Below, one piece after another: positions 171-16,949 of a stretch of DNA of 17,666 nt (position 1 is its first letter; each line of letters begins with the position of its first letter). The notes under the pieces were generated by a model that was not told where the DNA came from, searched no databases, and saw only the letters and a list, made by a program, of their open reading frames with translations. Origin of the DNA: Promethearchaeota archaeon (GTDB lineage Archaea; Asgardarchaeota; Lokiarchaeia; Sigyniarchaeales; SOKP01); NCBI GenBank assembly GCA_016926735.1, contig JAFGOA010000082.1, forward strand, positions 1 through 17,666, in the 5' to 3' direction. The translations under genes were made by a program, and so were the position numbers.

Positions 171-210
171 ATCATCGTAAAATGGGGGTATTACTAAATT
201 GACGCTAATA
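171..210 (+). repeat. Dispersed cassette-boundary site, copy 1
   Basis: ATCATCG-TAAAATGGGGGTATTACTAA-attgacg-CTAATA. The downstream arm (ATTAAT at 245, continuing to ~340) is homologous to that of copy 5. Confidence 0.9.
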
Positions 211-399
211 CACAATATATTCTATTTCACTAGACAATAGCGGGATTAATGTAAATAACATAATATCCAGTAATATTATTAAACTTTCAAGAGATTCTTA
301 AAAGATATAAAATCAATTGATTCTTAATCTTAAGAGATATTTATGATAAATTCTATATATAATAATTTAAACAAATAATCTTTTTTAAAAAAAGAAACC

Positions 400-786
400 T
401 TATGATTTACCTTTCTTTTCTCTCCAGATATAAAAATCATAATATTTTTGAACTTGATTTTTCTTCTCTTTTACTTTTTTTAAATATTTTTCTCTTAGTG
501 AATTTAAGCTATTTTCTCCTAAATCTATTGCATCATTAAATATTTCCCCTATTAGTGTTAATTCCATTTTCTTAGGTTGGAACAATTTAAAAAATGCAAA
601 TGGATTATTAGGATTAATGTCTATTTCTCGTACTATCATATCATACATATGATCTCTAATAAAATCTGCTAAATCATAACCACAATAATTATTATTTTCA
701 TCTATTAGATAATTTAATATATTTTCATAAGCAATATTAAGCTCTTCAAAAAATTTCTTATCTTCTCTCTTTTCTATTTTAAACAC
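400..786 (-). CDS. Hypothetical protein (128 aa)
   Basis: Open frame ending in TAA, no recognisable motif. The called GTG overlaps an SD-like AGGTG, so the true start may be slightly downstream. Confidence 0.7.
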   Translation of the reverse strand: MFKIEKREDKKFFEELNIAYENILNYLIDENNNYCGYDLADFIRDHMYDMIVREIDINPNNPFAFFKLFQPKKMELTLIGEIFNDAIDLGENSLNSLREKYLKKVKEKKNQVQKYYDFYIWREKKGKS

Positions 787-1157
787 CTATTTATATATCT
801 TTATTAATATATAAAACTTGATCTCCATTTAAGGTTTTTTTGTTTAATATTACTATCTATTACTAATCCTATCAATGAAGCTTGGAACGTTTTATTAAAG
901 AAATTAAATTATTTTTTTGCTCTTTATATATTATAAGAATAATATCGATTAATTGGGAACTTAGATTTCCCATAAATAACAATAGGAATAATTTAACCTT
1001 AGGGCTGGTCTTTTTGAAAAAAAAGATTAATAATTAGAATAGAAATTACTGAATTTTTATAAATAATTTGAAGGTTATGTAAATACATATATGTTCATTA
1101 TACTTCTATTTATAATATACTTAACAAAATTTTACTATTTTTAAAGGTTATTAAATT

Positions 1158-4100
1158 ATCTTAGAAGAAACTATAAAGGATTTAAATTTTCCAATTATTG
1201 GAATTGGGGCATCAGCAGGAGGTCTTGAAGCATTTGAGCAATTTTTCTCAAATATTTCCTCAGATACTGGTATGGCATTTGTTTTAATATCTCATTTAGA
1301 TCCAAACCATAAAAGTGATTTAACTGATTTAATAAAATTATATACAAAAATGAATTGTATAGAAGTCAATGAAGGTATGAGGATATCACCTAACCATATT
1401 TATATTATTCCTCCCAATTTTAATTTGGAAATAAAAGAGGGTGTATTCTATCTCAAAAAACCCAATATCATTAGGGGATTGAGATTACCAATTGATTTCT
1501 TTTTCAAGTCTTTAGCTTTAGAAAAAAAGGATCAAGCAATAGGAATTGTTCTTTCAGGAACAGGAACAGATGGTACACTTGGTATTAAAGAAATAAACGC
1601 TATTGGAGGATTGGCTATTGTTCAAGATCCGCATTCAGCGAATTATGATGGGATGCCAAAAAGTGTAATAATGAATGCTATTGCAGATTATGTCTTACCA
1701 GTGAATACAATCCCCGAGGTGTTGATAAAATATGTTAATGAAAAATTGAAATATAAAAAAAAAAAAGTTGATATAAAAGATTTAGAGTTTCATAATGATC
1801 TCTCTGAAATATTTACTATTTTAAGTACAAAATTAAATCATGATTTTTCTTGTTATAAAGAAAATACAATGATCAGACGTATAGAGAGAAGAATGGTTAT
1901 TAAACATATTAATAATATACATGATTATATAAATTATCTTCGTAAAAATCCAATCGAAATTGAGGTTCTCTTTAAAGAATTATTAATAGGGGTAACATAT
2001 TTTTTCCGGGATAAAGAAGCATATGATATTTTGAGAAAAAAGGTTATTCCTGAACTTTTTAAAGATTGTACTCAAAATAAAACAATTAAAATTTGGATTC
2101 CAGGATGCTCTACTGGAGAAGAACCATATTCCTTAGCAATATTATTTCAAGAATATTTAGATAAGAATAATAAATCGTGTAAGATACAGATTTTTGGGAC
2201 GGATATTGATGAGGTAGCAATAGAAAAGGCGCGTAATGGAATATATCTAGATAATATTGTAGTTGATGTATCATCTGATCGTCTAAATAAATTTTTTATT
2301 GTGGAAGGTAATAATTTTAAAATAAAACCAATCATAAGAGAAAAACTAGTGTTTGCAGTGCAAGATCTCATAACAGATCCTCCTTTTTCAAATGTAGATT
2401 TGATTGTTTGTAGAAATTTATTGATTTATTTAACACCAGATATCCAAAAAAAAATATTAACATTGTTCTATTATTCTCTTAATTCTGATGGTTATTTATT
2501 TTTAGGTAGCTCAGAATCTATAAGTAATCTATCTCAATTATTCATTGAAATTGACAGAAGATGGAAAATTTATCAATGTAAAAAAGTTGCTCCTTTACTT
2601 TTAGGTATATCAAGACCATTTCCCCCATTAACACATTACACTTTAAGACCCAATAAACGAGATGATTTTAAGAGTCCAGATATAATAAACTATAAGGATT
2701 TAATGGAAGAATTCTTAATAAAAACATATACTCCTCCTTCTATATTAGTGAATGAAAAAGGAGATATTTTATATATTCATGGAAAAGTTAATTCCTATCT
2801 TGATTTACCAGAGGGAGAGGCAAAAATGAATATTTTTGAGATGTCAAAGGATAATTTAAAAATACACTTAGCATCAGGTATAAGAAAAATAAATAAATCT
2901 AATAAACCAATAATATATGAAAATTTATCAATTAGATTGAATGGAAGTATTATTAGATTTAATCTAATGATATCACCAATTAATCAACTTAACTCATTCA
3001 ATGGTTTAATCATGATAACATTTATAGAATTAACGCCTGATCTAATCGCAGAAGAAGAATTAGAAGTTATTGATATAAAGGATACAATTATAGACATTAG
3101 AGTTAAGGAATTAGAGGAAGAATTGCTCTCTACAAAACAATATCTTCAGACAACAATTGAAGAACTTGAGAACACTAATGAAGAATTACAATCATCTAAT
3201 GAAGAACTACAGAGTACAAACGAAGAAATACAAACTTCTAAAGAAGAACTTCAATCTTTAAATGAGGAATTAACTACTGTTAATTCAGAGCTTGAAACTA
3301 AAATAACGGAATTATCAGAGGTTAATTCAGATTTATCTAATTTCATTTCAAGCACTGATATTGCTACTCTCTTCATAGATGGAAATTCTATAATTCAACG
3401 GTTTTCTCCAAATATAAAAGAAATTTTAAATATTATAGAAACAGATATTGGACGCCCTATAGAACACATCTCATCAAATCTCCAATATGATTCCTTAGTT
3501 CAAGATGCTAAAGAAGTCCTTAAAAAATCAATTACATTAGAAAAAGATGTTCAAACAAAAGATAATCAATGGTATAGCATGCGTATAATTCCATACAGGA
3601 CAATTAACAATATTATATCTGGAGTAGTTATAACATTTTTTAATATCTCTATTAGAAAAAAAATAGAAGAAGAAAAGATAGAAACTATGTTATTTGCCGA
3701 AAATATTGTAGAAACAACTAGAACACCATTGTTAGTCATAGATAATAACCTAAAGGTTATTAAAGTAAATTCTGCATTTTGTAAGTTATTCCAAGTCGAT
3801 AAAAAAGAAACAGAAAACAATTTTATTTTTGAATTAGGAAATAAACAATGGGATATCCCAAAATTACGTGAAATCCTGGATAAAATCATTAAAACTCATT
3901 CAAAAATTAAAGATTTTGAAGTAGATCATAATTTTGAAAAAATTGGTCAAAGAATTATGCTTCTTAATGCTAAAGAATTAAAAAGAAAAGAAGATTCTTT
4001 AATATTAATATCCATTGAAGATATAACAGAAAAAAAGGTCGCTAATGATAAATTGATCGAATCAAGAGAAATGTTTAAAGATGCTTACCAAAAGGTTGAA

Positions 4101-4778
4101 TTTTATAAAGATATTTTTATCCATGATATAAATAATATTCTACAAATTATACTTAGTTCTAGCGAACTTATTAAAAATATCCTAAAAAATCCTGAAGGTT
4201 ATGAGAAAATAATAGAAATGAATAATATGATTTTAAATCAAATTAAAAATGGTAAAAATTTAGTAAAAAACATTTCATTATTATCTCAGATAGATCAAAT
4301 TGGAGGAAATAATTATCTTTACCAAATATCTACTTTAATTGATAAGAGTATTGAAAATGTAAGAAATTCGTTTCCTAATAGAAAGATTGATTTTAATCTC
4401 GATTATAATAATAGAGAGTTAAAGGGATATATTAATGATCTATTATATAATGCAATAGAGAATATATTTATTAATTCAATCAAACATAGTGATAAAAACT
4501 CTATTCAAATTAATATTAAAGTTTCTAAAGAGGAAATTCAAAATGTAAATTATATTAAGATTGAGGTTGAAGATAACGGTCCAGGAATACCAGATGATCT
4601 AAAAAATCTAATTTTTAAAAATAAAATTAAATTCAGTGAAGTAGGATTGGGAATGGGATTGTATATTGTGAAAAAAATAATTGAAAGTATAAACGGAAAG
4701 ATTTATATCAAAAATCGTGTTAAAAACGATTATTCTAAAGGATTAAATGTGATCATATTATTAAGAGAAGAGGAATAA
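1158..4778 (+). CDS. CheB methylesterase-CheR methyltransferase-coiled coil-PAS-PAS-histidine kinase fusion protein
   Basis: CheB: GIGASAGG (in frame from 1200, upstream of the called ATG at 1272), ISHLDP, GTGTDG. CheR: WIPGCSTGEEPYS, GTDID, CRNLLIY. Coiled coil NEELQSSNEELQSTNEE, then PAS domains. Kinase: H-box FIHDINNILQ, EDNGPGIP, GLGMGL. The start is uncertain: the frame opens after TAA 1152-1154 with no ATG/GTG/TTG before 1272. Confidence 0.93.
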   Translation: MLEETIKDLNFPIIGIGASAGGLEAFEQFFSNISSDTGMAFVLISHLDPNHKSDLTDLIKLYTKMNCIEVNEGMRISPNHIYIIPPNFNLEIKEGVFYLKKPNIIRGLRLPIDFFFKSLALEKKDQAIGIVLSGTGTDGTLGIKEINAIGGLAIVQDPHSANYDGMPKSVIMNAIADYVLPVNTIPEVLIKYVNEKLKYKKKKVDIKDLEFHNDLSEIFTILSTKLNHDFSCYKENTMIRRIERRMVIKHINNIHDYINYLRKNPIEIEVLFKELLIGVTYFFRDKEAYDILRKKVIPELFKDCTQNKTIKIWIPGCSTGEEPYSLAILFQEYLDKNNKSCKIQIFGTDIDEVAIEKARNGIYLDNIVVDVSSDRLNKFFIVEGNNFKIKPIIREKLVFAVQDLITDPPFSNVDLIVCRNLLIYLTPDIQKKILTLFYYSLNSDGYLFLGSSESISNLSQLFIEIDRRWKIYQCKKVAPLLLGISRPFPPLTHYTLRPNKRDDFKSPDIINYKDLMEEFLIKTYTPPSILVNEKGDILYIHGKVNSYLDLPEGEAKMNIFEMSKDNLKIHLASGIRKINKSNKPIIYENLSIRLNGSIIRFNLMISPINQLNSFNGLIMITFIELTPDLIAEEELEVIDIKDTIIDIRVKELEEELLSTKQYLQTTIEELENTNEELQSSNEELQSTNEEIQTSKEELQSLNEELTTVNSELETKITELSEVNSDLSNFISSTDIATLFIDGNSIIQRFSPNIKEILNIIETDIGRPIEHISSNLQYDSLVQDAKEVLKKSITLEKDVQTKDNQWYSMRIIPYRTINNIISGVVITFFNISIRKKIEEEKIETMLFAENIVETTRTPLLVIDNNLKVIKVNSAFCKLFQVDKKETENNFIFELGNKQWDIPKLREILDKIIKTHSKIKDFEVDHNFEKIGQRIMLLNAKELKRKEDSLILISIEDITEKKVANDKLIESREMFKDAYQKVEFYKDIFIHDINNILQIILSSSELIKNILKNPEGYEKIIEMNNMILNQIKNGKNLVKNISLLSQIDQIGGNNYLYQISTLIDKSIENVRNSFPNRKIDFNLDYNNRELKGYINDLLYNAIENIFINSIKHSDKNSIQINIKVSKEEIQNVNYIKIEVEDNGPGIPDDLKNLIFKNKIKFSEVGLGMGLYIVKKIIESINGKIYIKNRVKNDYSKGLNVIILLREEE

Positions 4779-5077
4779 CTTTATTAGGAATATCCATAAT
4801 AGGGGACAGTCAAATTGAACTACTCACCCCTAAACAGTACCGAGTATTTTTTTTTTGTTACATTTTTCATCACTTCCTTTGAATCGGAAATATAGCTAAA
4901 TTATAGCGGTTCTTCCATGTAAAGCATGATCCAATTGAGTGTACATTGAATTAAAAAATAAATAGGACATTAAGAAAAAAAATATAATGAAGATGTTTTT
5001 TTTTTTAGTCAACTAAGAATATTGATACTCAAAAATCGGTTTATTTTAATAATCCCATAATTATTTTTCATTTTAAT

Positions 5078-5107
5078 ATGTGTGTAATTACTAAAATTTC
5101 TTTAATA
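5078..5107 (+). repeat. Possible degenerate copy of the boundary site
   Basis: ATGTGTGTAATTACTAA-aatttct-TTAATA versus consensus ATGGGGGTATTACTAA-N7-CTAATA. Intergenic and same orientation as the clear copies. Confidence 0.35.
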
Positions 5108-5351
5108 TCTATCTTTTTCAATACCATAGACCTTGTACTATAGCTATAGATTATTTAAGAATATTTATTTAAACAATCATAAAGTAGATTTTATGTATGT
5201 GACAAAATAATCTTGAGTATTATCAAAATAATCGATAATAATCTAAATAATTGTGATTAAAAAAATTGATAATTAAAATCATCATTATATTTTATTAAAA
5301 CTTAGCTAGAGACTACTGAATAATTTAATTTATATAATTTGAGAAAAATTT

Positions 5352-5759
5352 TTAAATTTCAACTTGGATCTTTTCAATATCCATCTTTTCTTTTTCTAAT
5401 TGTTTAATTTCTTTTAGTATAACTTTTTTTTTAGTTTTTTCTGCCTTATCAATTGCTTTTATTTTTATTAAAAATTCTTTTTCTTTTTCTTTTTTTAGAT
5501 TTGTTAAATCATTTTCTATACTTTTAGTGGAAGTAATTAGTTCTTTTACTTTTTCTGTCCATTTATTCTTCTCTTGAATATCTTTTTCAAGATCTACTTG
5601 TTCTGAATTTAGTTTATCATCCATATTGCTAATTTGTTTATCATATTTCTCCTTAACTTCATCTTTTATAGAAGCATGTTTATTTTTTGCTTCTTCTTCT
5701 ATACGAGATATTTCGTCATATTTTGCCATAATCTGACCGTTTATAAGTTCTTTTGACAT
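5352..5759 (-). CDS. Hypothetical coiled-coil (Lys/Glu-rich) protein
   Basis: Highly charged, helical-looking ORF. ATG at 5759 is preceded by SD-like GATGTGA; the ORF track's GTG at 5768 lies within that SD. Confidence 0.75.
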   Translation of the reverse strand: MSKELINGQIMAKYDEISRIEEEAKNKHASIKDEVKEKYDKQISNMDDKLNSEQVDLEKDIQEKNKWTEKVKELITSTKSIENDLTNLKKEKEKEFLIKIKAIDKAEKTKKKVILKEIKQLEKEKMDIEKIQVEI

Positions 5760-5933
5760 TTTTTTCACATCTATTATTTACTTAATTTTATTGATATATA
5801 ATATTATTATTTGGTAATATTTAAATATTCTCATATGGTAATATTAATATATAATAATAAAAATAATTTGAAACAGGATCTAATTTATAAAATTTATCTA
5901 TTTAATTAGTAAAAAGAGATTTAGGATAATATC

Positions 5934-6266
5934 ATGAGTATAAATGTATTAAGAATGACTTCTAAATTTTTTAAATTATTGAGTGATGTTAATGTATTGA
6001 AAATAATTTTACTATTGAAAAATAATGAGAAATCTTTCCAAGTAATTCAAAATAATTTAAATATTACACAATCTCACCAATCTCATTTAATGAGAAAACT
6101 TATTGATTCAAATATTTTAATTGTTCGAAGAGAACAAAGAAAAAAAATTTATAAAATAAAAAATAAAATAATATTTAGAATTCTTGGGGAAGCAAAAGGG
6201 TTTCTAACAGAAATACAAAAAGAAAAAATTGACGAATTAAAAGATTTTAATCTTTATGATATTTAA
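5934..6266 (+). CDS. ArsR/SmtB-family winged-HTH transcriptional regulator
   Basis: FFKLLSDVNVLKIILLL...ITQSHQSHLMRKL...RREQRKKIY matches the ArsR wHTH pattern. Confidence 0.85.
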   Translation: MSINVLRMTSKFFKLLSDVNVLKIILLLKNNEKSFQVIQNNLNITQSHQSHLMRKLIDSNILIVRREQRKKIYKIKNKIIFRILGEAKGFLTEIQKEKIDELKDFNLYDI

Positions 6267-6273
6267 TTTATAA

Positions 6274-6558
6274 TATTATTGTTTAAGAATATTAGTTCTT
6301 ACTGATAGTATGCATCTTATATCATATAATCAAAAATCATTTAATATTACATATCTAACACTTCAAAGCCATCTTAAATTTTTCGAAAGATTATCCAATC
6401 AAATCCAACTCATAAAAAGAATTAAAATAGGAAAAGAAATCATCTATTTTTTTTAGATCATCTCTAAAAAAGAATATACTTTATTGAGAAATCAAGATCA
6501 GAAAATAAAAGAAATAATTAAACAATTTAAAAATAATGGAGTCAAGGTATCAATATGA
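6274..6558 (+). pseudogene. Degraded winged-HTH regulator fragment
   Basis: Manual translation gives ...QKSFNITYLTLQSHLKFFE...LIKRIKIGKEIIYFF* (TAG 6454-6456, after a T8 run), then EYTLLRNQDQKIKEIIKQFKNNG further downstream. Resembles archaeal double-wHTH regulators. Confidence 0.4.
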
Positions 6559-6629
6559 TAATTTTATTGTAAAATATAATTATTTTCACTTTTACACGAT
6601 AATTTGTTTTTTAACAATGAAAATATTTA

Positions 6630-6695
6630 TTTCATGGAAAAAGTGAAGTTTTTAATGGAATTTGGAAGTGAAATGGGGATATCACTAAACACCTT
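6630..6695 (+). repeat. Boundary site copy 2 (left arm and core only)
   Basis: TTTCATGGA...TTTTAATGGA...GTGAAATGGGGATATCACTAA with ATGG at 6634/6655/6673 (spacing 21/18). The right half, CTAATAA, is not conserved. Confidence 0.85.
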
Positions 6696-6890
6696 CTGGT
6701 GAATGATTAACCTTATATCATTAAGAATTTAAGAAGATGAATAAATATCTTAATGATAAAAAAAGAAATAGGAAAATTTGGACATTTTATTTGGATTTTA
6801 ATCTCCGTCTTGTTCTTTACTTGTTATAAATTTATATAGATGATTGAAATACAATACAAAAAAATATTAGATTTCATTGATTTGATTTAG

Positions 6891-7039
6891 AGTTTTCCAA
6901 TTATTGAAAAAGGTGATATATAAAAAATATTATTTTGGTATGAGTCCATCAGATCCATACTTAAATATCACTTCTCTAACCTCCTATTTAGGAAAAAAAA
7001 AGACTTAGAAGTTAATATATATTCTTTTTTTAATTTTTA
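6891..7039. repeat. Empty-site copy of the locus at 12385-13408
   Basis: 6891-7003 aligns to 12385-12500, and 7005-7039 is identical (35 bp) to 13374-13408. Confidence 0.9.
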
Positions 7040-7333
7040 ATCATAGATCAAAATAATCAAGAAAAAAAATAAAAATATAATATTTATTTCAATATTATTG
7101 TAGTATTGACTTAATGGACCCAAAACCTAAATGGGAACAATATATCCGTCTAAAATGCATATTTTTCCAATTTAGATTTGAAAATCGAAAAGATTAGTTT
7201 CCTCATTCAATATTATCATCTAATAAAAGTTATATTAGATTAGATCGGAAGATAAAAGAGGAAAATTATGAAATAAAATAAAATGACTCTACTGTTAAAT
7301 TCTAATTTTAAAAGAAAATAAAACGAAATATAT

Positions 7334-7705
7334 TTAAGAAAGTTTCATTATTTTTCCAGATTTTATTAGTCTACAAAAATATGGGATATCTTCCTTAGGA
7401 TTACCAATCATTTTACTTAAAATAGCTTCTTTTTTATATCTTGGATGAAAATGATGTGGTCTGGTAGAAACTACCCATCTATCATCATAATTATCAAAAC
7501 GACAACGATCCAATTCTATATTTGAAAAAATAATAGAATAACTATATTGTTCATAGTTATTAAACTAAATATACACAATATATCCATTAGTGAGTTCTAA
7601 ATTAATTCTTGGATCCTCTTGATTTATAGCAATTCTTGATATAGATTTTTTTAATTGTTTTTCTACGATAATCTGTGAAATATTTATTTTTTGTAAAGCA
7701 TTCAT
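7334..7705 (-). pseudogene. TumE/DUF6516-like toxin interrupted by an in-frame TAG at codon 47
   Basis: Manual translation: MNALQKINISQ...NGYIVYI*FNNYEQYSYSIIFSNIELDRCRFDNYDDRWVVSTRPHHFHPRY...KLS*. The RxDN...STxPHHxH motif is DUF6516-like. The ATG overlaps the upstream gene's TGA (TGATG). Confidence 0.75.
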
Positions 7706-7947
7706 CAATTTTTACTCCATGATATTTTCAATTCCTGTAACTCATCTCGTTTATCAAGGATATTTCTTAGAGAAATAGCATCTGGCTCTGCTTCTTGGAG
7801 AGTTCCATCTGCGGCATGTTTTAAGAAAAGTTCAGCTGATGTATAATTCCATTTTGATAATAGTGTATTTATCGTATCAGTGATTAATTTAAGTTTTGAA
7901 TCCAGTAAATCAAAAAGTAGATCCTTATCAACTAAAATTGATGTCAT
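7705..7947 (-). CDS. Putative antitoxin (TumA-like small helical protein)
   Basis: 80-aa acidic helical protein (LLSKWNYTSAELFL), translationally coupled to the DUF6516-like gene. Confidence 0.7.
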   Translation of the reverse strand: MTSILVDKDLLFDLLDSKLKLITDTINTLLSKWNYTSAELFLKHAADGTLQEAEPDAISLRNILDKRDELQELKISWSKN

Positions 7948-8210
7948 GATTAATACAATTTAATTTTACAATAATTTTTTATATTATATTAAGAATAGAG
8001 GTTTTGTTATAATAATATTTGATATATAAATTATTCAAAAAAAAATATCATTTTCCTCCTATTTATTTAAAAAATTTCCTTTTATATAAAGAGTTAATGA
8101 TTTTATAGAAGGTCTAATTCCTTGCTTCTCACTAATAATAGCTAAAATATTTATAAAGTAGACAAGAGCGGTTCTAATATCTATCCCCTTATAATAAAAT
8201 ATAAAAAAGT

Positions 8211-8241
8211 TCAATGTGATAGGATTTGAACCTATATCTCC
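8211..8241 (-). other. tRNA 3'-end-like fragment (T-arm plus acceptor 3' strand)
   Basis: Minus strand reads GGAGAT-ATAGG-TTCAAAT-CCTAT-CACATTG-A followed by a T-run: a perfect 5-bp stem with a TTCAAAT loop. No 5' half found. Confidence 0.4.
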
Positions 8242-8320
8242 TAAAAAAAGTTTTTTTTAATTACATTTTTCTGATATTTATATCATAGATAAAAATTTTT
8301 TTATTAAAATCAAGAATAGG

Positions 8321-8394
8321 TTTTAATGGACAATTGAGTGATTTTAATGGAAAATCAACGTGAAATGGGGGTATTACTAAATTCATACTAATAA
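8321..8394 (+). repeat. Boundary site copy 3 (complete)
   Basis: TTTTAATGGA x2, then CGTGAAATGGGGGTATTACTAA-attcata-CTAATAA. ATGG at 8326/8347/8365; ATTAAT 40 bp after CTAATA. Confidence 0.95.
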
Positions 8395-8547
8395 GCTACT
8401 AGTATTATTTTATTATTAATTGGAATGATTAATGGAAATAAAAATTATAAACAAAAATAAAATCAATATATTAATATACTTGGGGATTAAAGATTTAATT
8501 ATTATTATAATAATCCTAAAATTCTATAATAAAGATGTGAAAATAAT

Positions 8548-11500
8548 ATAGTAAGATTAAAAAAAGAAGAAGAAGTATTTTTAGAAGATTTGAGACACCA
8601 TTTGAGAAGATCAATTTTTGAATATATTCCTAAGGTACCTAAAATAGATCCTAAAACAACTGGAATTAAAATTAAGCGTGATAGGATTATAGGTATAAGT
8701 ATAGTAAAAAATATTAATATCTCTTTATTCCCAGAGTCAATTAAATTCCTTACAAAACTAAGAGAAATATATATAAGAAGTCTCTCACCTGTTCATTTCC
8801 CTGATTCAATAAAAAAGCTTAAATCACTTAAAATATTATATTTAAGACATGTTAGGCTATTTGAATTTCCAGAAGGAATTGGAAAATTAGAAAATCTCCA
8901 ATATCTTAATATGGGGTGGAATGATCTAAAAGAGATTTCTGAATCCATTGGAAATCTTAAAAAGCTTAATATCCTTATCATAACATGGAATCATAAATTG
9001 ATGCATCTTCCAGAATCAATAGGAAACCTTAATAACCTTCAAATACTTAAACTAAAAAATAATTATCTATTTGATATTCCCGATTCAATTGGAGAGTTAG
9101 AAAACCTTCATTCTCTTAATTTAAGTAATAACAAAATAGAAGAATTACCAAATGCAATTGGAAATCTAATACATCTTAAAGAACTTAATTTAAGTAATAA
9201 CAAAATAAAAGAATTACCAAACACATTTGGAAACCTAATAAATCTCAAAGAGCTTAATTTTGATCTCAATCATATAGAGGAGATCCCAAAATCTTTTAAA
9301 AAATTAAGAAATCTTCAATCTCTTAATTTTAAGCGAAATTATCTAAAAGAGATTCCCAAATCAATTAGAAAATTAGAAAAACTTCAATGTATTAATTTAG
9401 AAGAGTGTACCTTGAAAAAGATTCCAAAGTCAATTGGAAAGTTAAAGTGTCTTAAAGAACTTAATTTAGAGTATAATTATTTAACAGAATTACCAAATAC
9501 TATTGGAAATCTAATAAATCTCGAAGTTCTTAATTTAAAGGATAATAAATTGACAGAATTACCAAATACAATCGGAAATCTATTTAATCTCAAGAAAATT
9601 AATTTAAAGAGTAATAAATTAGCAAAATTACCAAATACTATTGGAAATCTAATAACTCTCGAAGTTCTTAATTTAAAAGATAATAAATTGACAGAATTAC
9701 CAAATTCGATTGGAAATCTAATAAATCTCAAAATTCTTAATTTAAAGTCTTGTAGATTAAAAGATTTACCAAATACATTTGGAAATCTAATACATCTTAA
9801 AGAACTTGTATTAAATAATGTTAGATTTGCAAAATTTCCAGAATATATATATAAATTAAGAAATCTTAAAAAAGTTGAAATAAATGGAATTATTTCAGAT
9901 TCTATAATAGAAATTTCAGAATCTATAGGTGATCTCATAAACCTTGAGGAATTAAACTTACATCTTATAAGAATTAGCTCTTCATTAAAAATCCCAGAAA
10001 CAATTGGAAAATTAAAAAATATTAAGAAAATTTATTTAAATCATTTGCAAGAACTTCCAAAAACTATTGGAGATTTAGAAAATCTGCAAATACTTAGATT
10101 ACGTTCCAGTCAATTGAAAGAATTACCAAATTCGATTGGAAATTTAAAAAATCTACAACGACTTGGATTAAGTTCTAGTCTATTGAGAAAATTGCCAAAT
10201 TCGATTGGAAATTTAAAAAATCTAAAAAAATTACTTCTAATTGATAGTGAATTAACAGAGCTTCCAGAAACTATTGGAGATTTACTAAATCTTGAGGAAA
10301 TAAGTTTAAACAAAAATAAATTAATAAAATTACCAGAATCAATTGGACAATTGAAAAATCTTAAGGAATTAGATATTAGTTATAATCACCTAGTTAAAAT
10401 TCTTGAATCTATAGATAAATTATCAAACCTACAAACACTTATTTTGAATAACAATAATATTACACATATTCCTGAATCTATAGGTAATTTATCAAACCTA
10501 CAAACACTTATTTTGAATAATAATAATCTTACACATATTCCTGAATCCATAGGTAATTTATCAAACCTACAAACACTTATTTTAAATAATAATAATCTTA
10601 CACATATTCCTGAATCTATAGGTAATTTATCAAACCTACAAACACTTATTTTAAATAATAATAATCTTACAGATATTCCTGAATCTATAGGAAACTTAAA
10701 AAAAATAAGAGAGCTTAATTTAGGGCATAATCAATTATTGGAACTTCCAGAGACAATAGGAAATCTAATAAAAATAAAAGAATTAAATTTAGAGCATAAT
10801 AAATTATTAGAACTTCCAGAGACAATAGGTTCTTTAAAATATATTTTAAAATTAAGTTTAAACAATAATCTATTGAAATCGATTCCAGATTTAATAGGAT
10901 ACTTAAATAATCTAATAGAACTAAACTTAGAGTATAATACTCTCCAACAACTTCCAGAGGATATAGGCAAATTATCTAACCTCCGAGCACTTATTTTAAA
11001 TAATAATTATCTGATAGATATACCTGAATCAATAGGAAATTTAAAACATCTTAAAGAGTTTAATTTAAGCTATAATCAATTAGTGGAGCTTCCAAACACA
11101 TTAGGAGATTTAAATCGTATTTCAGAATTAAATCTAAGCCATAATCTATTAAATGTTATTCCAGATTCTTTAGGTAATTTAAGAACTCTAAGAAAGCTCA
11201 ATTTAGAAGGTAATCATTTAATAAATATACCTGATTCAATAAAAAACCTAAATTTACAATGGCCAATTGCGAAAAATTTGTCAAAATACTTTGATATAAA
11301 AATTTGGGAAAAATTGGAAATTTTCTTTTTTAAAAAAGATTCACAAAATATTTTGCAAACCATATCCCAACCATATGTAATTTATGAGAATAGATTAAGT
11401 TTACTGAACGAGGTAATCAAAAATTTAATGATAAAATATTATTCTGAAGGAATAACCACCCAAACCTATGATCCAAATATAAATACAATTATTTATAATA

Positions 11501-11994
11501 TTTTAAAAATGATTAATTTTTTTCATAAGTCTACTTTGAATTATTATATACTTCCTGGAAATTCTAATAAACCAGATTATAACAAACTTAGTCAACTATT
11601 TTTTGGATGTAGTAAAGAAACATTCTATGAGAAATTAGTTAATAATCAAATTAAATTAGATTCCATTAGACGACCTACTTTAGTTTTGATTGGAGATATT
11701 GCATATATTTTTTATAAATGGAATGATGAAAAATCTAATGAAGATAAGTTCATTCTGAAAGATATCTATAATGCATTTATAACAAAAACGAATCAATATC
11801 AAAAAATTAATTTATCAACTCAAATAACCCAGGATGATTTTCTGAATATTATTATCATTTTTACTAATAATAAACTTCTAGATTTATCATATAATTCTGA
11901 AAATACAGAGTGGAGAATAATAAATGAAAATAATTTAAAATGCTTTTATCAATCCAATTCTTTATTTTATTTATTAGATCAGATATTTTACTAA
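8548..11994 (+). CDS. Large leucine-rich-repeat protein (about 35-37 23-aa LRRs) with an uncharacterised C-terminal domain
   Basis: Repeated LPxSIGNLxNLxxLxLxxNxL units. The ORF track starts at TTG 8590, but the frame is open from 8533, with ATA at 8548 after SD-like GATGTGA. Confidence 0.95.
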   Translation: MVRLKKEEEVFLEDLRHHLRRSIFEYIPKVPKIDPKTTGIKIKRDRIIGISIVKNINISLFPESIKFLTKLREIYIRSLSPVHFPDSIKKLKSLKILYLRHVRLFEFPEGIGKLENLQYLNMGWNDLKEISESIGNLKKLNILIITWNHKLMHLPESIGNLNNLQILKLKNNYLFDIPDSIGELENLHSLNLSNNKIEELPNAIGNLIHLKELNLSNNKIKELPNTFGNLINLKELNFDLNHIEEIPKSFKKLRNLQSLNFKRNYLKEIPKSIRKLEKLQCINLEECTLKKIPKSIGKLKCLKELNLEYNYLTELPNTIGNLINLEVLNLKDNKLTELPNTIGNLFNLKKINLKSNKLAKLPNTIGNLITLEVLNLKDNKLTELPNSIGNLINLKILNLKSCRLKDLPNTFGNLIHLKELVLNNVRFAKFPEYIYKLRNLKKVEINGIISDSIIEISESIGDLINLEELNLHLIRISSSLKIPETIGKLKNIKKIYLNHLQELPKTIGDLENLQILRLRSSQLKELPNSIGNLKNLQRLGLSSSLLRKLPNSIGNLKNLKKLLLIDSELTELPETIGDLLNLEEISLNKNKLIKLPESIGQLKNLKELDISYNHLVKILESIDKLSNLQTLILNNNNITHIPESIGNLSNLQTLILNNNNLTHIPESIGNLSNLQTLILNNNNLTHIPESIGNLSNLQTLILNNNNLTDIPESIGNLKKIRELNLGHNQLLELPETIGNLIKIKELNLEHNKLLELPETIGSLKYILKLSLNNNLLKSIPDLIGYLNNLIELNLEYNTLQQLPEDIGKLSNLRALILNNNYLIDIPESIGNLKHLKEFNLSYNQLVELPNTLGDLNRISELNLSHNLLNVIPDSLGNLRTLRKLNLEGNHLINIPDSIKNLNLQWPIAKNLSKYFDIKIWEKLEIFFFKKDSQNILQTISQPYVIYENRLSLLNEVIKNLMIKYYSEGITTQTYDPNINTIIYNILKMINFFHKSTLNYYILPGNSNKPDYNKLSQLFFGCSKETFYEKLVNNQIKLDSIRRPTLVLIGDIAYIFYKWNDEKSNEDKFILKDIYNAFITKTNQYQKINLSTQITQDDFLNIIIIFTNNKLLDLSYNSENTEWRIINENNLKCFYQSNSLFYLLDQIFY
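10402..10691 (+). repeat. Near-perfect 69-bp tandem repeat (4 units plus a partial) inside the LRR gene
   Basis: CCTGAATCTATAGGTAATTTATCAAACCTACAAACACTTATTTT(G/A)AATAATAATAATCTTACACATATT units at ~10402, 10471, 10540 and 10609. Confidence 0.95.
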
Positions 11995-12002
11995 GATATA
12001 TG

Positions 12003-12044
12003 ATTCAGCGTGAAATGGGGGTATTACTAAATGCACTCTAATAA
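12003..12044 (+). repeat. Boundary site copy 4
   Basis: ATTCAGCGTGAAATGGGGGTATTACTAA-atgcact-CTAATAA, starting 8 bp after the LRR stop codon. Confidence 0.95.
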
Positions 12045-12270
12045 ATGATTTCGGTTATATTTTTTAAGAAATGAGAATATTATTAATATATAAGAAATAT
12101 TTAGTAAGATATCTAAATCTTTAAAGAATCTCTACCTATTTTATATCAATTCTACGTAAATTATCAGTAGTTAGTAAGAATAGATGATTTTTTTTCTCTG
12201 CAATTTCCTCAAAATTTTAATTAGAGTTTTATAAAATAAAAAAGATATAAGTAAATTAATTTATATCTAA

Positions 12271-12327
12271 GGTTTTTATGGAAAAGTTGATAAATATAAT
12301 AAATGTTTACTAAAGCAGAACTGATAA
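12271..12327 (+). repeat. Degenerate boundary site
   Basis: GGTTTTTATGGAAAAG arm, then AAATGTTTACTAA-agcagaa-CTGATAA. The N7 geometry is kept but the G-run is lost. Confidence 0.5.
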
Positions 12328-12500
12328 GGTTTACTTATTTTGGTTAATTCTTTCTATTAGTTCTTATTAAGCTTTATAATTTTAAGTTTTCCGATTATTG
12401 GAAAAAAGTGATATCTAAACAATATTGTTTTGGGCAGGAGTTCATCAGATCTATTCTTAAATATCACTCCTATAACCTTCTACTTAAAAAAAAAAAAGGA

Positions 12501-13328
12501 TTAAATATTATTAATATCTTCTATAATTTTGAACCCTCTCTTTTGAAGGCTTTTCTTAAGAGCTTCACTCAGTTTTACTACTTTAGACTCATAAAATAGA
12601 ATGGCGGGGATACAAACCGCAATAGATATAAATGGCATATTTATCATTAGGATAAGCCCAAGTAGCCAATCTGAAGGATTTAAATCCAAAATAAAATTTT
12701 CTATAGCTAATAGTCCGATTGCAAAGAGCGTACTAATCCCTACGTATCCTTTTACTATACTATAAATGTCCTTATATACGCCTTCTATATCAGGTAATAA
12801 TCTAGAACCCTCTTTCCTTGATTTTTGTGAGCACATAATACTTGAATCCTGTAAAAGCCATATTGGTGCAATAATGATGATTAAAAAGGGTATAATAAAG
12901 AGAGTTGCTATTGTATTCACTATCAGATCACTCCCCGAAAGAGAAAGAATAATATTACGATGAATAAGTTGTGAGAGAAATGTTCCAATGCTAAAGCCAA
13001 ATAATCCCATAATTATAACTCTCGCCATCATAGTGCTAAATCTTAGCTCTTTATGTGGATTTTGAAGAATCGCATATCTGAAACGCTTTAGTTTCATTAT
13101 ATTATGTAATTTAAAAAATATAATTGACATAGGGACTTCAAGAAGGATTATCAAAACAATCATAATAATTGGAGAAAATACAAAAAAATAGAGAATATCA
13201 ATATATGCATTTTCTCCAGGGATTAATAAAGTGATATCATTAGCATCCTGACTTGCTATAAGTAAAACCATTAATATCGGAACTTGGAATACTATAGAAA
13301 AAGCTATCATCTTATAGTTTCGTTTCAT
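12501..13328 (-). CDS. Hypothetical multi-pass membrane protein (~6 TM)
   Basis: 275-aa ORF with about six hydrophobic segments, ATG start, and a T-run immediately after the stop. Confidence 0.85.
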   Translation of the reverse strand: MKRNYKMIAFSIVFQVPILMVLLIASQDANDITLLIPGENAYIDILYFFVFSPIIMIVLIILLEVPMSIIFFKLHNIMKLKRFRYAILQNPHKELRFSTMMARVIIMGLFGFSIGTFLSQLIHRNIILSLSGSDLIVNTIATLFIIPFLIIIIAPIWLLQDSSIMCSQKSRKEGSRLLPDIEGVYKDIYSIVKGYVGISTLFAIGLLAIENFILDLNPSDWLLGLILMINMPFISIAVCIPAILFYESKVVKLSEALKKSLQKRGFKIIEDINNI

Positions 13329-13373
13329 TTATTAAGCTCATCTTTGACTAAAAAATTTTAATTAATAAAAGAA

Positions 13374-13408
13374 TTAGAAGTTAATATATATTCTTTTTTT
13401 AATTTTTA
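13374..13408 (-). promoter_or_regulatory. Putative archaeal BRE/TATA promoter for the membrane-protein gene
   Basis: Minus strand AAAAAAAGAA-TATATATTAA about 55 bp upstream of ATG 13328. An identical block sits at 7005-7039. Confidence 0.45.
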
Positions 13409-13869
13409 CTGATTCTTATTAATGAGGAATGGAATACAACATTTAAGTTATTTAAATCTATTCTTGACAAAGATCTTATCTCATTTCAAAAAATAAAGAA
13501 GATTTTTATTAAAATTTTTAAATTAATTGAAAATGATAAAGAATATTAATAACTTTAGAATTAAATATGTTTAAAATTGTATTAATTCCAGAATTTATCC
13601 CATATATCCAATAAAAAATAACTAATACAAATCAAATAAAAAATAATATTGATAAATATTCTGCCTCATTATTATTAATAAAACTATTTTTCATGGAAAT
13701 TTTAATAAAATCGTTATTAAATAGAAAATTAAACTTTTGATTATAGAGAAATTTGAATTATTAGAGAACATCGAATAGTATTTTCTATTATAAACCAATT
13801 ACATTGTAAAAGATATATATCTTTAGAGTTATACAAAGCTTATTATTAGAAAATTATCAGTTATATATT

Positions 13870-15210
13870 ATGATTCCGACAATAGGTTTTTTCATAGATT
13901 GGATCTCTTCTGCTAATCATATTGAATTAATATTAAGTTTAGAAGAAGCTGCTAAAAAAGCTGGAGTTAATTTATTGACAATAATGGGAGGTGCATTAAA
14001 TTCTCCAAAAATATATGAAGCTAAAAGTAATAAACTTTACAACAATCCTAAAGATATACCAATTGACGGACTTATAATAGAATCTGGTTTATTAGGATTG
14101 TATTGTAATTATCTTCAAATGAAGGAGTTTATCAGTAGATTCAATCATATTCCAGTGGTAAGTCTATCAAAAAAGATCGAAAGCATTCATACAATTATTA
14201 TTGATGCTTCTAAAGGATTTAATGAATTAATATCTCACGTTATAAAAAAGCATAAATGTCAAAATTTTGCGTATATTAGTGGTCCAAAAGAAAATGACGA
14301 CTCTAATAAAAGATTAGAAGTTTTTAAATCAACCCTCAAGGAAAATCAAATCACCTGGAATGAAAAGGCGATTTATTATGGTAAATTTATAAACACATCT
14401 GGAAATGAAGCAATTAATTATTTTTTTGATGACCTCAATATTTCACCCGACGTTATTGTTGCGGCAAATGATGATATGGCAATGGGTGCAATTAATGAAT
14501 TAAAAAAACGTAAAATTCTAATCCCAGATACCATAAAAATAATCGGTTTTGATGATCAAATTAACGCAAAATTTTTCAATCCTCCACTTTCAACCGTAAA
14601 AATCCCAACGAATCAAATATGTGAAAAGGCAATCGAAGTAATTAAGGATTTAATAGATGGAAAAAAAAAGGATGAATTAATTGAAATTCCAACAAAAATG
14701 ATCATACGTTCATCCTGTGGATGCGATAATTCAAGAACAAATGAATCAAATTCTGATAATTTCAATCTTCTTCCAAAAAAACAAAAAATAATTATTAATT
14801 TTATAGATGCATATAGAAATATAGGCTACACTCGTGATATAGGCCTTCTTGAAAAAGTAATTCCATATCTATTTGATAATACTAACATATTATTATGCAT
14901 TATTTCATTCTTCCAAAATAATTCCTCAGAAAATCTTAGTCCAGTATTAAAATATATGAATAATGAAGCAAAAATCTCAAAATTTAAAGAAATATTTAAA
15001 AATCCTTATCATTTATTAAAATCTCTTCTGAGATCAGAAAACCCTATCAATATTCGTCTATTTTCTATCATTTTTCAAGATAAAGTAATTGGAACTATCA
15101 TATATCAAGTGAAATTAGATGGAAATCTCTTAGGAAGCGCAATGCGGACCAATTTACTAGATAATTTAGCAAAAACATTATATATCCATCAATTTTTGAA
15201 TCATTATTAA
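13870..15210 (+). CDS. LacI/GalR-type sugar-binding (periplasmic-binding-protein fold) sensor protein lacking the N-terminal HTH
   Basis: Begins directly at TIGFFID. Motifs AYISGP, AANDDMAMG, IIGFDD, PPLSTV, IIRSSCGC. C-terminal GAF-like region, no output domain. Confidence 0.88.
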   Translation: MIPTIGFFIDWISSANHIELILSLEEAAKKAGVNLLTIMGGALNSPKIYEAKSNKLYNNPKDIPIDGLIIESGLLGLYCNYLQMKEFISRFNHIPVVSLSKKIESIHTIIIDASKGFNELISHVIKKHKCQNFAYISGPKENDDSNKRLEVFKSTLKENQITWNEKAIYYGKFINTSGNEAINYFFDDLNISPDVIVAANDDMAMGAINELKKRKILIPDTIKIIGFDDQINAKFFNPPLSTVKIPTNQICEKAIEVIKDLIDGKKKDELIEIPTKMIIRSSCGCDNSRTNESNSDNFNLLPKKQKIIINFIDAYRNIGYTRDIGLLEKVIPYLFDNTNILLCIISFFQNNSSENLSPVLKYMNNEAKISKFKEIFKNPYHLLKSLLRSENPINIRLFSIIFQDKVIGTIIYQVKLDGNLLGSAMRTNLLDNLAKTLYIHQFLNHY

Positions 15211-15514
15211 ATTTCATAGTCAGTAGAAGATATCTATTTCTTTAAAATCTTTTTTATCTTTTGATTTTATTTATTTTAATTTTTAATGAAAATTCTATGA
15301 AAATAGCTATAGAACGGTAATTTCTAATTCCGAATTTAGTGAAAATTTCATAAAAAATTATTTTTTTATTATAATATTATTGATATATATGTCTAAATAA
15401 TGTAAATCAACTTGAAACAGTTATCAGTTTTTACATAGAATTAATCATAAATCAGAAAAATATGTCTTTATGATATGATTATTGGAATATTTAACTAAAA
15501 CATAAAAGACCTCC

Positions 15515-15757
15515 TTAAACAGAAACTAATGAAAACATTATTCCTAACACACTTAAAATCAAACTTGCATTTAATAGCTTACTTTTCCTTTCAACTTTAT
15601 TTGTTTTAATATATAAAAATAATGAAAGAAATCCAATAACAACACCACAAAATTCAGTTACTATTGCTATATAATTTTCAAAATTAGAGGCAGCGTGATA
15701 ATGTTGTATAAATGCAGAACCCAAACTTCTAAGTCCTAAAAACCAAAAATAAAACAT
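15515..15757 (-). CDS. Small hypothetical membrane protein (possibly a fragment)
   Basis: 80-aa ORF with 2-3 hydrophobic segments. Confidence 0.5.
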   Translation of the reverse strand: MFYFWFLGLRSLGSAFIQHYHAASNFENYIAIVTEFCGVVIGFLSLFLYIKTNKVERKSKLLNASLILSVLGIMFSLVSV

Positions 15758-15930
15758 AATTTTGAATATCTAAAATTAGATAAATTATAATTATCTTTCA
15801 TAATCGAATAGTTATTACGATCTTATATAAAATAATCAGGAATAAAATTCTCTATATATAATAAAAAAATATCTATAAAATCTTATTGAAAAAAAGGTCT
15901 TTATATCATCATATATTCGTATTAGAAATA

Positions 15931-15971
15931 ATCATCGTGAAATGGGGGTATCACTAAAATCGCGCTAATAA
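15931..15971 (+). repeat. Boundary site copy 5
   Basis: ATCATCGTGAAATGGGGGTATCACTAA-aatcgcg-CTAATAA. ATTAAT 40 bp after CTAATA, and the downstream arm is homologous to copy 1. Confidence 0.95.
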
Positions 15972-16188
15972 ACGATATCAATTGGATTCTCTAAATTTGA
16001 AGGGATTAATATGAATAATATAATGTTCCAATACGATTGCTTAACATTCAGAAGACTCATAAAAGAAATGTATTTATTTGATAATTCTTAAATATTATTC
16101 TTAATTGCTATAACTATAATTATTATTTGAAATAAAAGATAAATATAAAAGGCTTTTCTATCATTTCCTTCTATGATTGTGATTAAAA

Positions 16189-16800
16189 TTGTTCGTGGCG
16201 TGGTTAAATTTCATCTTTTTTAATGTTTTTGAAATATTGATGATATATTTTGCTAAAATCGGTTCTATGCCATTTATCCGAGAGAAAAAGCGTGGTGAAA
16301 AAGCATGGGAGGAAAGTGCTCGATACCGAAGTTTTTTTGGAATTTTCGAATTAGGAATGATTATATGCATTTTCTTATGGATTTGGTTTCCAATTCCCCA
16401 ACTAAGTTGGTTAATTAACCAAAATATCTTTATTAGTATCTTTATTGGAATTTGCATAAGCATTCCTAGTTTATTACTTTTGATAAAGGGAATGAAAGAT
16501 GCTGGTGAGGAGAGCTTACATCCCTCTAAAGAAACTAAAATGTTTGGCGGAATTTATAGACATATTCGTCATCCTCAAAACTTAGGCGAGTTTTCACTCT
16601 TTATTGTTTTGGCTTTTTGTATTAATTCACTCTTTCTCGTTCTTTGGGTCACAACTAACGTGATTATATTAATTTTAATTGTTAGCTATTTTGAAGAGAA
16701 AGATTTAGTTGAGCGATTTGGCGAATCTTATATTAAATATAAGCAAACAACAGGAGCATTCTTCCCTAAAATTAGAAAGAGTTTGAATAAAGAAGAGTAA
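16189..16800 (+). CDS. Isoprenylcysteine carboxyl methyltransferase / PEMT-family membrane methyltransferase
   Basis: Motifs GGIYRHIRHPQNLGE and EEKDLVERFGESYIKYKQTTGAFFP, with multiple TM helices. Confidence 0.9.
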   Translation: MFVAWLNFIFFNVFEILMIYFAKIGSMPFIREKKRGEKAWEESARYRSFFGIFELGMIICIFLWIWFPIPQLSWLINQNIFISIFIGICISIPSLLLLIKGMKDAGEESLHPSKETKMFGGIYRHIRHPQNLGEFSLFIVLAFCINSLFLVLWVTTNVIILILIVSYFEEKDLVERFGESYIKYKQTTGAFFPKIRKSLNKEE

Positions 16801-16875
16801 TTCTGTAACTATATTACATTTTTCTGATAACTATCTAAAAGATAAAAATTATTTTTATTATAATTAAGAAAAGGT

Positions 16876-16949
16876 TTTTAATGGAAAATGTAATAATTTT
16901 AATGGAAAATGGATCTGAAATGGGGTTATCACTAAGCTCACTCTAAAGA
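16876..16949 (+). repeat. Boundary site copy 6
   Basis: TTTTAATGGA x2, then TGAAATGGGGTTATCACTAA-gctcact-CTAAAGA. ATGG at 16881/16902/16920 (spacing 21/18); ATTAAT at +40 (16983). Confidence 0.92.

Follow-up and report, generated by a model that had tools for sequence, protein, structure and literature searches.

The stretch of DNA analysed here, hereafter the window, is the complete contig JAFGOA010000082.1 (C112, 17,666 bp) of a Promethearchaeota archaeon (GCA_016926735.1, bin G000), an archaeal genome of 3.88 Mb in 238 contigs, with 26% G+C and 99% completeness, which encodes profilin-like proteins, in keeping with an Asgard archaeon. It carries genes for a sensor kinase fusion, a leucine-rich-repeat (LRR) protein, a membrane protein, a LacI-type binding protein, a methyltransferase and a decayed toxin, and between these genes six copies of a repeat in the same orientation. 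It is fairly likely that these repeats are junctions left by the site-specific recombination of gene cassettes which bring no integrase of their own. Contigs of G000 are given below by number only and those of related genomes together with the genome (such as G001:C192).

The 20-bp core of the repeat, searched for as TRAAATGGGGDTATYACTAA with up to three mismatches allowed, has six matches in the window, all without mismatch and all on the + strand (178-197, 6669-6688, 8361-8380, 12011-12030, 15938-15957 and 16916-16935), compared to a mean of 0.08 in dinucleotide shuffles, none of which (0 of 200) reached six. The core-to-core spacings are 6491, 1692, 3650, 3927 and 978 bp. All six copies are intergenic relative to the long open reading frames (ORFs), and the two short reverse-strand ORFs which overlap copy 1 (3-215, running off the contig end) and copy 3 (8261-8386) are probably spurious. 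Copies 2, 4 and 6 are flanked by convergent genes, copies 3 and 5 by divergent genes. The number and end points of the copies, their common strand and intergenic position, the lengths of the modules between them and this gene setting had been described in an earlier reading of the same DNA (hereafter the sequence-only reading), and all are reproduced. Two of its measures are corrected: the stop of the LRR gene, placed 8 bp before copy 4, belongs to an ORF ending at 11994, 16 bp before the 20-bp core, and the 20-bp unit is too short, as nhmmer aligns about 125-135 nt per window copy and adds further family members on C168 and C85.

With up to two mismatches allowed, the whole of G000 holds seven matches to the core, six in the window and one at C168:158-177, all forward, and the reversed pattern used as control has none. 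The TGGGGG-type core is strongly clustered and not dispersed over G000. An even spread over the genome, which the sequence-only reading had named as telling against an array, is not found for this type, with six of the seven copies on the window contig. A scan of wider genome contigs for the TGGGGG core gave a single record, the same contig as G003:C476.

Anatomy and distribution of the site

Each core is an imperfect palindrome composed of a left arm, GTGAAA (or GTAAAA, CTGAAA), a variable spacer of 6 nt and a right arm. Written in full, the left arm is (ATC)GTGAAA, while the right arm is either perfect, TTTCAC, usually followed by G, or degenerate, TATYAC or TTTTGC, and the palindrome is often longer (ATC-GTGAAA...TTTCAC-GAT). 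Some 120-150 nt of conserved right flank follow the degenerate arm (TAAAYTCACTCTAATAA...GATTAATG.AAATAA...). Many copies are preceded by an upstream flank of about 100 nt with two direct repeats, here termed U boxes (TTAATGGAAAAT; pattern TT[AC]ATGGAAAAT), which are 21 nt apart and end 4-5 nt ahead of the left arm. This upstream flank is common to copies 2, 3 and 6, in which both U boxes and the core are phased by exactly 21 nt, with ATGG at each (6631-6710, 8323-8405 and 16878-16960). U-box-like motifs (TTTTCATGGAAAT ... AAATGGAAAAT) are also present, with no palindrome, at 13688-13735 and in locus L024 (3093-3140), at the left border of the block holding the LacI-like gene, which G003 has in common at 97% identity; this may mean that U boxes also act independently, for instance as promoter elements.

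The distance between the arms is specific. GTGAAA and TTTCAC are separated by six nucleotides (N6) at eight sites in G000, with eight different spacers, versus no site at N3, N4, N5, N7 or N10, one at N8 and two at N9; when one arm mismatch is allowed, there are 22 matches at N6 versus 5-17 at other spacings. Enrichment of the perfect palindrome is seen in 32 of 41 related genomes (0-14 sites per genome, versus 0-1 for the reversed control). A metagenome scan for a U box with the left arm yielded 119 stretches, with one true family member (L115) among the 80 loci scanned. Two inverted arms around a 6-nt centre also constitute the core recognised by Xer/dif tyrosine recombinases in the extracts of PMC2958812 and PMC5357621, and because the present site has this layout, the claim of the sequence-only reading that it is without a dif palindrome is wrong.

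The same reading had noted the absence of attC hairpins, which holds: DNA folds of both strands give a strong local hairpin in copy 2 only, and as neither these nor the RNA folds contain a long hairpin common to the copies, attC-type sites are ruled out. A small structured RNA was rejected on the basis of an Rfam E-value scan of the window without any match at the sites (one unrelated match, E 0.81, lies elsewhere), a consensus fold limited to a 6-pair hairpin with one compensatory change, and single-strand RNA fold z-scores of the copies between -2.1 and +1.6; a tRNA scan of the window found none. A conserved micro-ORF over the core (MEN...EMG[VIL]...) was likewise rejected, as the frame is open in several copies and the peptide is unconserved at other spacers. 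By manual reading of the aligned sequences, the frame stops early in two family members, and we take it for a side effect of the repeated DNA. A GGGG run, a TATTAC motif and neighbouring direct repeats had also suggested replication-origin boxes or rolling-circle origins; both were dropped, since the TATTAC arm takes other forms (TATCAC, TTTTGC, TTTCAC) and kilobases separate the copies.

Neighbouring sites agree both in orientation and in spacer. By a manual tally, all 16 adjacent same-contig pairs listed in G000 are co-oriented, and in a sister array, G001:C120, all four sites are on one strand. The spacers of the window are TGGGGG (four copies), TGGGGA and TGGGGT. Co-oriented pairs elsewhere in G000 carry GGACAG twice (C85 18624/24020), GATTCA/GATTAA (C55) and CATCTA/CCTCTA (C38 5765/17056), while in G001:C157 a degenerate-arm site and a perfect site, with TAGGGG and TGGGGG, surround an intact gene for a TumE-like toxin together with its partner. 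At C41:63274 and in G003:C499, both with spacer GACTGG, one right half is joined to two different left halves. The start of C168 (locus L050) holds three more co-oriented sites (157, 2080 and 3013), the last of which has U boxes, a perfect arm and an 8-nt centre, and C168 may represent the far end of the window array. Finally, three species of another genus (G016:C38, G023:C29 and G004:C41; L183-L185) have retained an empty perfect site, its spacer being TTGGCG, which is flanked on either side by syntenic sequence of about 66-74% identity; the landing pads are therefore old and perhaps under selection.

Occupied and empty loci

Comparisons to related genomes place the borders of inserted DNA inside the core at two loci. 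In C55 of G000, an insert of 5271 bp stands between GTGAAA-GATTCA-TATTAC and U-box-GTGAAA-GATTAA-TTTCAC. G003:C485 has instead a single perfect site (AAAATC GTGAAA GATTAA TTTCAC GTGC), the left flank of which is 96% identical to C55 up to 8390 and the right flank 94% identical from C55 13649 onwards, and this switch of flanks places the junction between the arms. C85 of G000 has five co-oriented sites, the outer pair (18624 and 24020) with spacer GGACAG and the three inner ones with TAACTG. The same outer structure is present in G001:C192 with one TAACTG site only, which joins C85 18625-18846 directly to C85 22589-24034 (97-98% identity), and G000 thus holds about 3.7 kb, corresponding to two cassettes, that G001:C192 does not have. 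The right-hand C85 copy has the left-arm variant GCAAAA, which is also found at the U-type TAACTG sites C85:21332 and C161:2437; this recurrence indicates that the variant arrives with the incoming flank, and argues against a simple target duplication. In G003:C425 the left chromosomal flank and the junction are as at C85:18624, and the sequence diverges about 85 nt past the core. Compared across G000, G001 and G003, one landing pad accordingly has different cargo in three genomes.

An occupied and an empty form, a junction inside the core and a common overlap, as for attL/attR, are found both in C55 versus G003:C485 and in C85 versus G001:C192. The breakpoints exactly at the site which the sequence-only reading anticipated between strains were therefore found at these sister loci, but at none of the six window copies. 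Over the whole family, the presence or absence of U boxes and the state of the right arm define four flank classes (Table 1), which match the pattern expected if one reaction joined a circular element to a chromosomal target, and the hybrid flanks fit the attB/attP/attL/attR scheme. In such a reaction, the chromosomal targets would carry the perfect right arm TTTCAC(G), and the cassettes a degenerate right arm (TATYAC or TTTTGC) with its conserved flank, the other cassette end usually being the stretch of about 100 nt with two U boxes. A circular cassette, with U boxes, left arm, spacer, degenerate arm and right flank in this order, would pair with a target of the same spacer, and the exchange would take place inside the spacer. 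This would create a left junction composed of target flank, left arm, spacer and degenerate arm, and a right junction composed of U boxes, left arm, spacer and perfect arm. Repeated insertion would give co-oriented arrays, the internal junctions of which have U boxes and a degenerate arm, the form seen in copies 2, 3 and 6.

The anatomy of the site, its N6 specificity, the clustering, co-orientation and spacer matching, the two core-internal insertions or deletions and a cargo free of recombinases form the basis for this interpretation, and the evidence from the site family largely supports a cassette array. The system probably inserts cassettes and probably excises them too. From the above we infer circular intermediates, the direction and order of events, the enzyme, and this same origin for the six window copies.

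One other explanation is that the sites constitute a regulatory module, retained for the control of genes, in which the operator of a dimeric factor overlies a promoter or the start of a small transcript and the rearrangements nearby are incidental. Such a module would leave the core-internal insert boundaries, the common spacers and the four recombined flank classes unexplained, even if the U boxes look like a promoter, AT-rich and some 18-20 nt ahead of the palindrome, and about half of the G000 family members precede a same-strand ORF. Eight of the 16 sites examined, those of the window included, face a convergent gene or are located between gene 3' ends (for example C85:24020). In favour of regulation, perfect palindromes are kept at syntenic positions across species and the window encodes an ArsR-like regulator. 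Against it, Rfam has no match at the sites, folding yields nothing stable or covarying except a hairpin of 4-6 bp, and the possible short ORFs over the site are not conserved as peptides on manual reading. A regulatory origin is, on balance, improbable.

A similarly low probability is given to ends or relics of transposons or miniature inverted-repeat transposable elements (MITEs) which prefer the palindrome as a target and duplicate part of it. The two C55 junctions both have GTGAAAGATT, resembling a 10-bp target duplication, but at C85 the duplicates differ as would be expected of attP- versus attB-derived arms, and GCAAAA moves with the U flank; the cassette-borne arm moreover keeps an invariable distance of 6 nt to the left arm. 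Single copies whose flanks are unrelated do occur (window 6630-6830 compared with G001:C187), but the copies are only 60-80% identical, unlike those of recently active MITEs. G000 has 17 TnpB matches and several short repeat families, but no Y1 transposase, and no transposase is encoded within the inserts. Ends of IS200/IS605 or TnpB elements were also rejected as candidates, as the TnpB gene nearest to a site (C43) is 1.1 kb away and beyond another ORF. The ends of the C55 and C85 inserts show no obvious terminal inverted repeats, although no systematic search for them was made.

Cargo and mosaic structure of the window

The cargo is accessory and mixed (Table 1), and its genes are located on both strands, in line with the sequence-only reading. 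Two of the gene labels in that reading stand only in part. Its toxin-antitoxin pair of module 2 has a weak TumE match below the cut-off (E 0.0013) in a broken frame, with an intact homologous pair in G001:C157, and its ICMT gene is above the cut-off for PEMT but below those for ICMT and NF040696. The insert of C55 encodes a GH10-CBM3-fn3-dockerin enzyme, a separate dockerin protein and an EF-Tu-like fragment, and that of C85 an Fe-S protein, a TetR regulator and a GNAT acetyltransferase. In C168 (L050, ORFs 467-8313), a CDC48-N protein and a ParE toxin with its antitoxin are found between sites, and an SNF2 helicase and a DNA methylase past the last site. No recombinase was found in the cargo of the window, the C55 and C85 inserts or C168, which agrees with the earlier statement that none is encoded within the window. 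The GH10 protein with CBM3, fn3 and dockerin (L049, G000:C55, 3806-6406) represents a cellulosome-style architecture in an Asgard genome.

Table 1. Sites, genes and other repeats of the window, and flank classes of the site family.
Feature	Position	Strand	Remarks
Copy 1 core	177-194	+	GTAAAA-TGGGGG-TATTAC; left flank AATCATC, no recognisable U boxes; attL-like
Copy 1 right flank	195-297	+	TAAATTGACGCTAATAC...GGGATTAATGTAAATAA...; homology to G001:C67 begins at 298
Copy 2 upstream flank	6599-6667	+	two phased U boxes (TTCATGGAAAAA ... TTAATGGAATTT)
Copy 2 core	6668-6685	+	GTGAAA-TGGGGA-TATCAC; U boxes and degenerate right arm, array-internal type
Copy 2 right flank	6686-6830	+	6630-6830 81% identical to G001:C187, neither outer flank in common
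Copy 3 upstream flank	8260-8359	+	-100 box in common with copy 6 (86%) and two U boxes
Copy 3 core	8360-8377	+	GTGAAA-TGGGGG-TATTAC
Copy 4 core	12010-12027	+	GTGAAA-TGGGGG-TATTAC; no U boxes; LRR stop codon 15 nt before
Copy 4 right flank	12028-12171	+	94% match to G001:C120 begins at 12172; flank mostly deleted in G001
Copy 5 core	15937-15954	+	GTGAAA-TGGGGG-TATCAC; left flank AATCATC (decayed U flank)
Copy 6 upstream flank	16813-16914	+	-100 box and two U boxes 21 nt apart
Copy 6 core	16915-16932	+	CTGAAA-TGGGGT-TATCAC
CheB-CheR-PAS-histidine kinase fusion	1272-4778	+	cargo or backbone; ortholog in G001:C31 (92%)
ArsR/SmtB-like winged-helix regulator	5934-6266	+	matches below curated cut-offs
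Second copy of the membrane-gene cassette, remnant	6885-7044	+	matches 12379-12522 (81%) and 13364-13408 (96%); ORF deleted
Decayed TumE-like toxin, broken frame, and upstream 80-aa ORF	7334-7947	-	intact homologous pair in a G001 cassette
1134-aa leucine-rich-repeat protein	8590-11994	+	no ortholog in G001-G003, similarity at the level of the repeats only
275-aa membrane protein	12501-13328	-	no family match
LacI-type periplasmic-binding-like domain protein	13870-15210	+	orthologs in G003:C285 (97%) and G001:C140 (91%), in differing contexts
PEMT/ICMT-like methyltransferase	16189-16800	+	no ortholog in G001-G003
Repeat family A	1-96		about 95% identical to many G000 contig ends (C4, C11, C63, C73, C111, C138); unrelated to the site
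Repeat family B	994-1078		85 nt, many copies in G000-G003 (about 75-97%), often at contig ends
Repeat family C	4812-4958		147 nt, begins where synteny with G001:C31 ends; unrelated to the site
Class without U boxes, perfect arm	C41:63274, C222:22795, C30:17088, C43:19621, empty sites in relatives		attB-like target
Class with U boxes, degenerate arm	copies 2, 3, 6; C168:157; C133:8999; C85:21332, 22586; C161:2437		array-internal junction type
Class without U boxes, degenerate arm	copies 1, 4, 5; C85:18624; C125:19408; C159:5628; C161:6024; C38:5808		attL-like
Class with U boxes, perfect arm	C85:24020; C158:8942; C55:13649; C38:17056; C168:3013 (8-nt centre)		attR-like

The window is a mosaic of blocks with orthologs on different contigs of G001 and G003. 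Two block borders lie beside site flanks, at 298 after the right flank of copy 1 and at 12172 after that of copy 4. The block 12172-13413 is 94% identical to G001:C120 and follows directly behind a site in both genomes, with different upstream neighbours; the membrane-protein cassette, which is the last one of the four-site array in G001:C120, recurs there in another array context. Module 4 consists of two blocks, which are on different contigs in G001 and G003, and in module 1 (198-6668) two other repeat families are found at the borders of synteny blocks. The sequence-only reading of the region as a cassette array is hence upheld in that, according to the site-family comparisons, co-oriented sites join independently acquired cargo, but its assignment of one cassette to each module is not. 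Among the other repeats, family A is the probable reason why the assembly breaks off just ahead of copy 1. Family B, which is MITE-like in appearance and unrelated to the site, stands exactly between two synteny blocks, and family C has more than a dozen copies in G003 (90-98%), while G000 has the present copy and one 41-nt fragment.

Such a repeat-rich and fast-rearranging region could also hold leftovers of segmental duplication followed by homologous or microhomology-mediated deletion, with no dedicated recombinase involved; paralogy extends beyond the sites (6885-7044 compared with 12379-13413, and 8260-8302 with 16813-16855) and other repeat families are at synteny breaks as well, but the breaks at two independent loci fall inside the same 18-bp palindrome, between its arms, the spacing is strictly N6, the palindrome is enriched family-wide and the cargo between sites is unrelated, all of which makes this origin an improbable one too.

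Candidate enzyme and relation to known systems

If the repeats are cassette junctions, the leading candidate for the enzyme is the XerA recombinase of the host, a tentative proposal which, even on that reading, is somewhat less likely than not. G000 has a single PF00589 match, a protein that passes the XerA model NF040815 (240 bits versus a cut-off of 220), reaches 85.6 bits with the integron-integrase model, for which the cut-off is 265, and has XerA/XerC-like proteins as its closest solved relatives. The gene is located directly upstream of orc1/cdc6 (L051, G000:C228, 3208-5522), and therefore probably near a replication origin. Four relatives with 10-14 perfect sites each (G002, G016, G019 and G023) likewise have a single PF00589 match each. 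Pyrococcus abyssi XerA is described, in the extracts of PMC2958812, as performing both integration and resolution in vitro with no partner protein. The sequence-only reading had suggested a look for a tyrosine recombinase or transposase gene nearby; the one tyrosine recombinase gene found in G000 has no site near it. Serine recombinases were rejected, as none of their three genes in G000 has a site within 5 kb. In G016, a perfect palindrome (G016:C138, L178, 4631-4648) lies about 2.8 kb from the sole XerA gene, a proximity that may be due to chance. A search of G000 for a Pyrococcus-type dif gave no near match, with 69 matches at N6 versus 66-69 at other spacings.

Several observations weigh against recombination junctions as the origin of the repeats, or against XerA as their enzyme. 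Copies 1, 4 and 5 are without recognisable U boxes, although the simple model predicts these at internal junctions. For none of the six copies in the window was an occupied/empty polymorphism found, and the contig begins 177 nt ahead of copy 1, which leaves its outer flank beyond the contig. The first two genes of module 1 (400-786 and 1272-4778) are adjacent in G001, where the end of C67 overlaps the start of C31, with a kinase gene upstream and no site, which argues that module 1 is at least partly ordinary backbone. Synteny also breaks away from the core, at 996/1081 and 4814 (at other repeat families) and at 6417, 13413/13688 and 15235 (at no repeat), indicating that the window has been reshaped by other processes as well. 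The syntenic conservation of empty sites could equally reflect a host function, such as the binding of a regulatory protein. As for the enzyme, no site is found near xerA in G000, and G006, G009 and G018 (96-98% complete by marker genes) have XerA-type matches and no perfect palindrome. The arms of the site are unlike those of the P. abyssi dif, as given in the methods text of PMC2958812, and measure 6-9 bp versus the 11 bp of known dif sites in the extracts of that paper.

In its working, the cassette system is most like the Xer-exploiting integrative elements (integrative mobile elements exploiting Xer, IMEX) and dif-like modules. As in the IMEX CTX-phi, TLC-phi and the gonococcal genetic island, no integrase is carried and dif-style arms surround a 6-nt centre, and as in difGGI and the TLC-phi attP described in the extracts of PMC5357621, one arm and the centre are conserved while the other arm is degenerate. 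Co-oriented copies accumulate in tandem at the target in both, and a Xer-type enzyme is the only tyrosine recombinase found here. Unlike in the IMEX, however, the host is an archaeon with a single XerA, itself only a candidate, rather than XerC/D, and there are many chromosomal targets with different spacers instead of one dif, with at least eight perfect sites of eight spacers in G000 and insertions at several loci. The arms are 6-9 bp and not 11 bp, the long conserved flanks contain direct repeats, and the cargo consists of small gene cassettes and not of phages or islands. In pdif modules, which are plasmid-borne, the two bounding sites face in opposite directions. Those of Acinetobacter plasmids resemble the present cassettes in having discrete cargo, toxin-antitoxin pairs included, Xer-type sites and no recombinase of their own, whereas the sites here are direct repeats on apparently chromosomal contigs.

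Integrons share the co-oriented arrays of sites separating small, mostly single-gene accessory cassettes, with toxin-antitoxin cassettes among them, and the two direct repeats upstream of a simple site resemble the attI1 of integrons. The folded single strand of attC (R''-L''...L'-R', about 57-141 nt) has no counterpart here, however, the arms being 6 nt apart and not 40-120 nt; several loci serve as targets, and the cargo faces both ways where integron cassettes are mostly co-oriented and promoterless. In G000, no IntI-type integrase, a group marked by its own additional domain, was found and XerA is the only match of this type, although an unbinned gene is possible in a 99%-complete bin. Clusters of attC have been reported in Asgard genome bins, and most arrays in Archaea are reported to be without an adjacent integrase gene, according to the extracts of PMC9668308. 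Lambda attP/attB offers a further likeness in its small core, the identical overlap in both partners, the hybrid attL/attR after insertion, and the long element-borne flanks with repeated boxes, possible arm-type or accessory-protein sites; unlike lambda, the cassettes encode neither integrase nor excisionase, and no arm-binding integrase was found in G000. A description of archaeal IMEX, or of Xer-exploiting or integrase-less cassette systems, was not found in the open-access literature searched, and the terms 'IMEX' and 'hijack' have no occurrence in the extracts of a 2021 review of archaeal tyrosine recombinases (PMC8371274).

If XerA is the enzyme, the system could be regarded as an archaeal counterpart of the Xer-exploiting elements. 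The full proposal, of integrase-less cassettes run by XerA family-wide, in which the spacer serves as an address among many landing pads and half-degenerate sites allow stacking, and which would be the counterpart of integrons and IMEX, is rather doubtful as a whole. The sites are short and well defined, which renders the idea testable in vitro with purified recombinase, and the motif can serve for locating variable regions in metagenome bins of Asgard archaea, in which these repeats seem to interrupt the assembly. Among known prokaryotes, Asgard archaea stand closest to the eukaryotes, and their uptake of foreign genes is a question of interest. The cargo seen encompasses sensors, LRR proteins, toxin-antitoxin pairs and dockerin-bearing carbohydrate-active enzymes. 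If correct, the cassettes would extend the logic of Xer-exploiting elements and integrons from Bacteria to Archaea, and would constitute a concrete and testable route of gene flow into Asgard genomes, one without an integrase of its own, in which short palindromic pads receive stacked accessory genes, bacterial-type ones such as the dockerin-bearing GH10 enzyme included.

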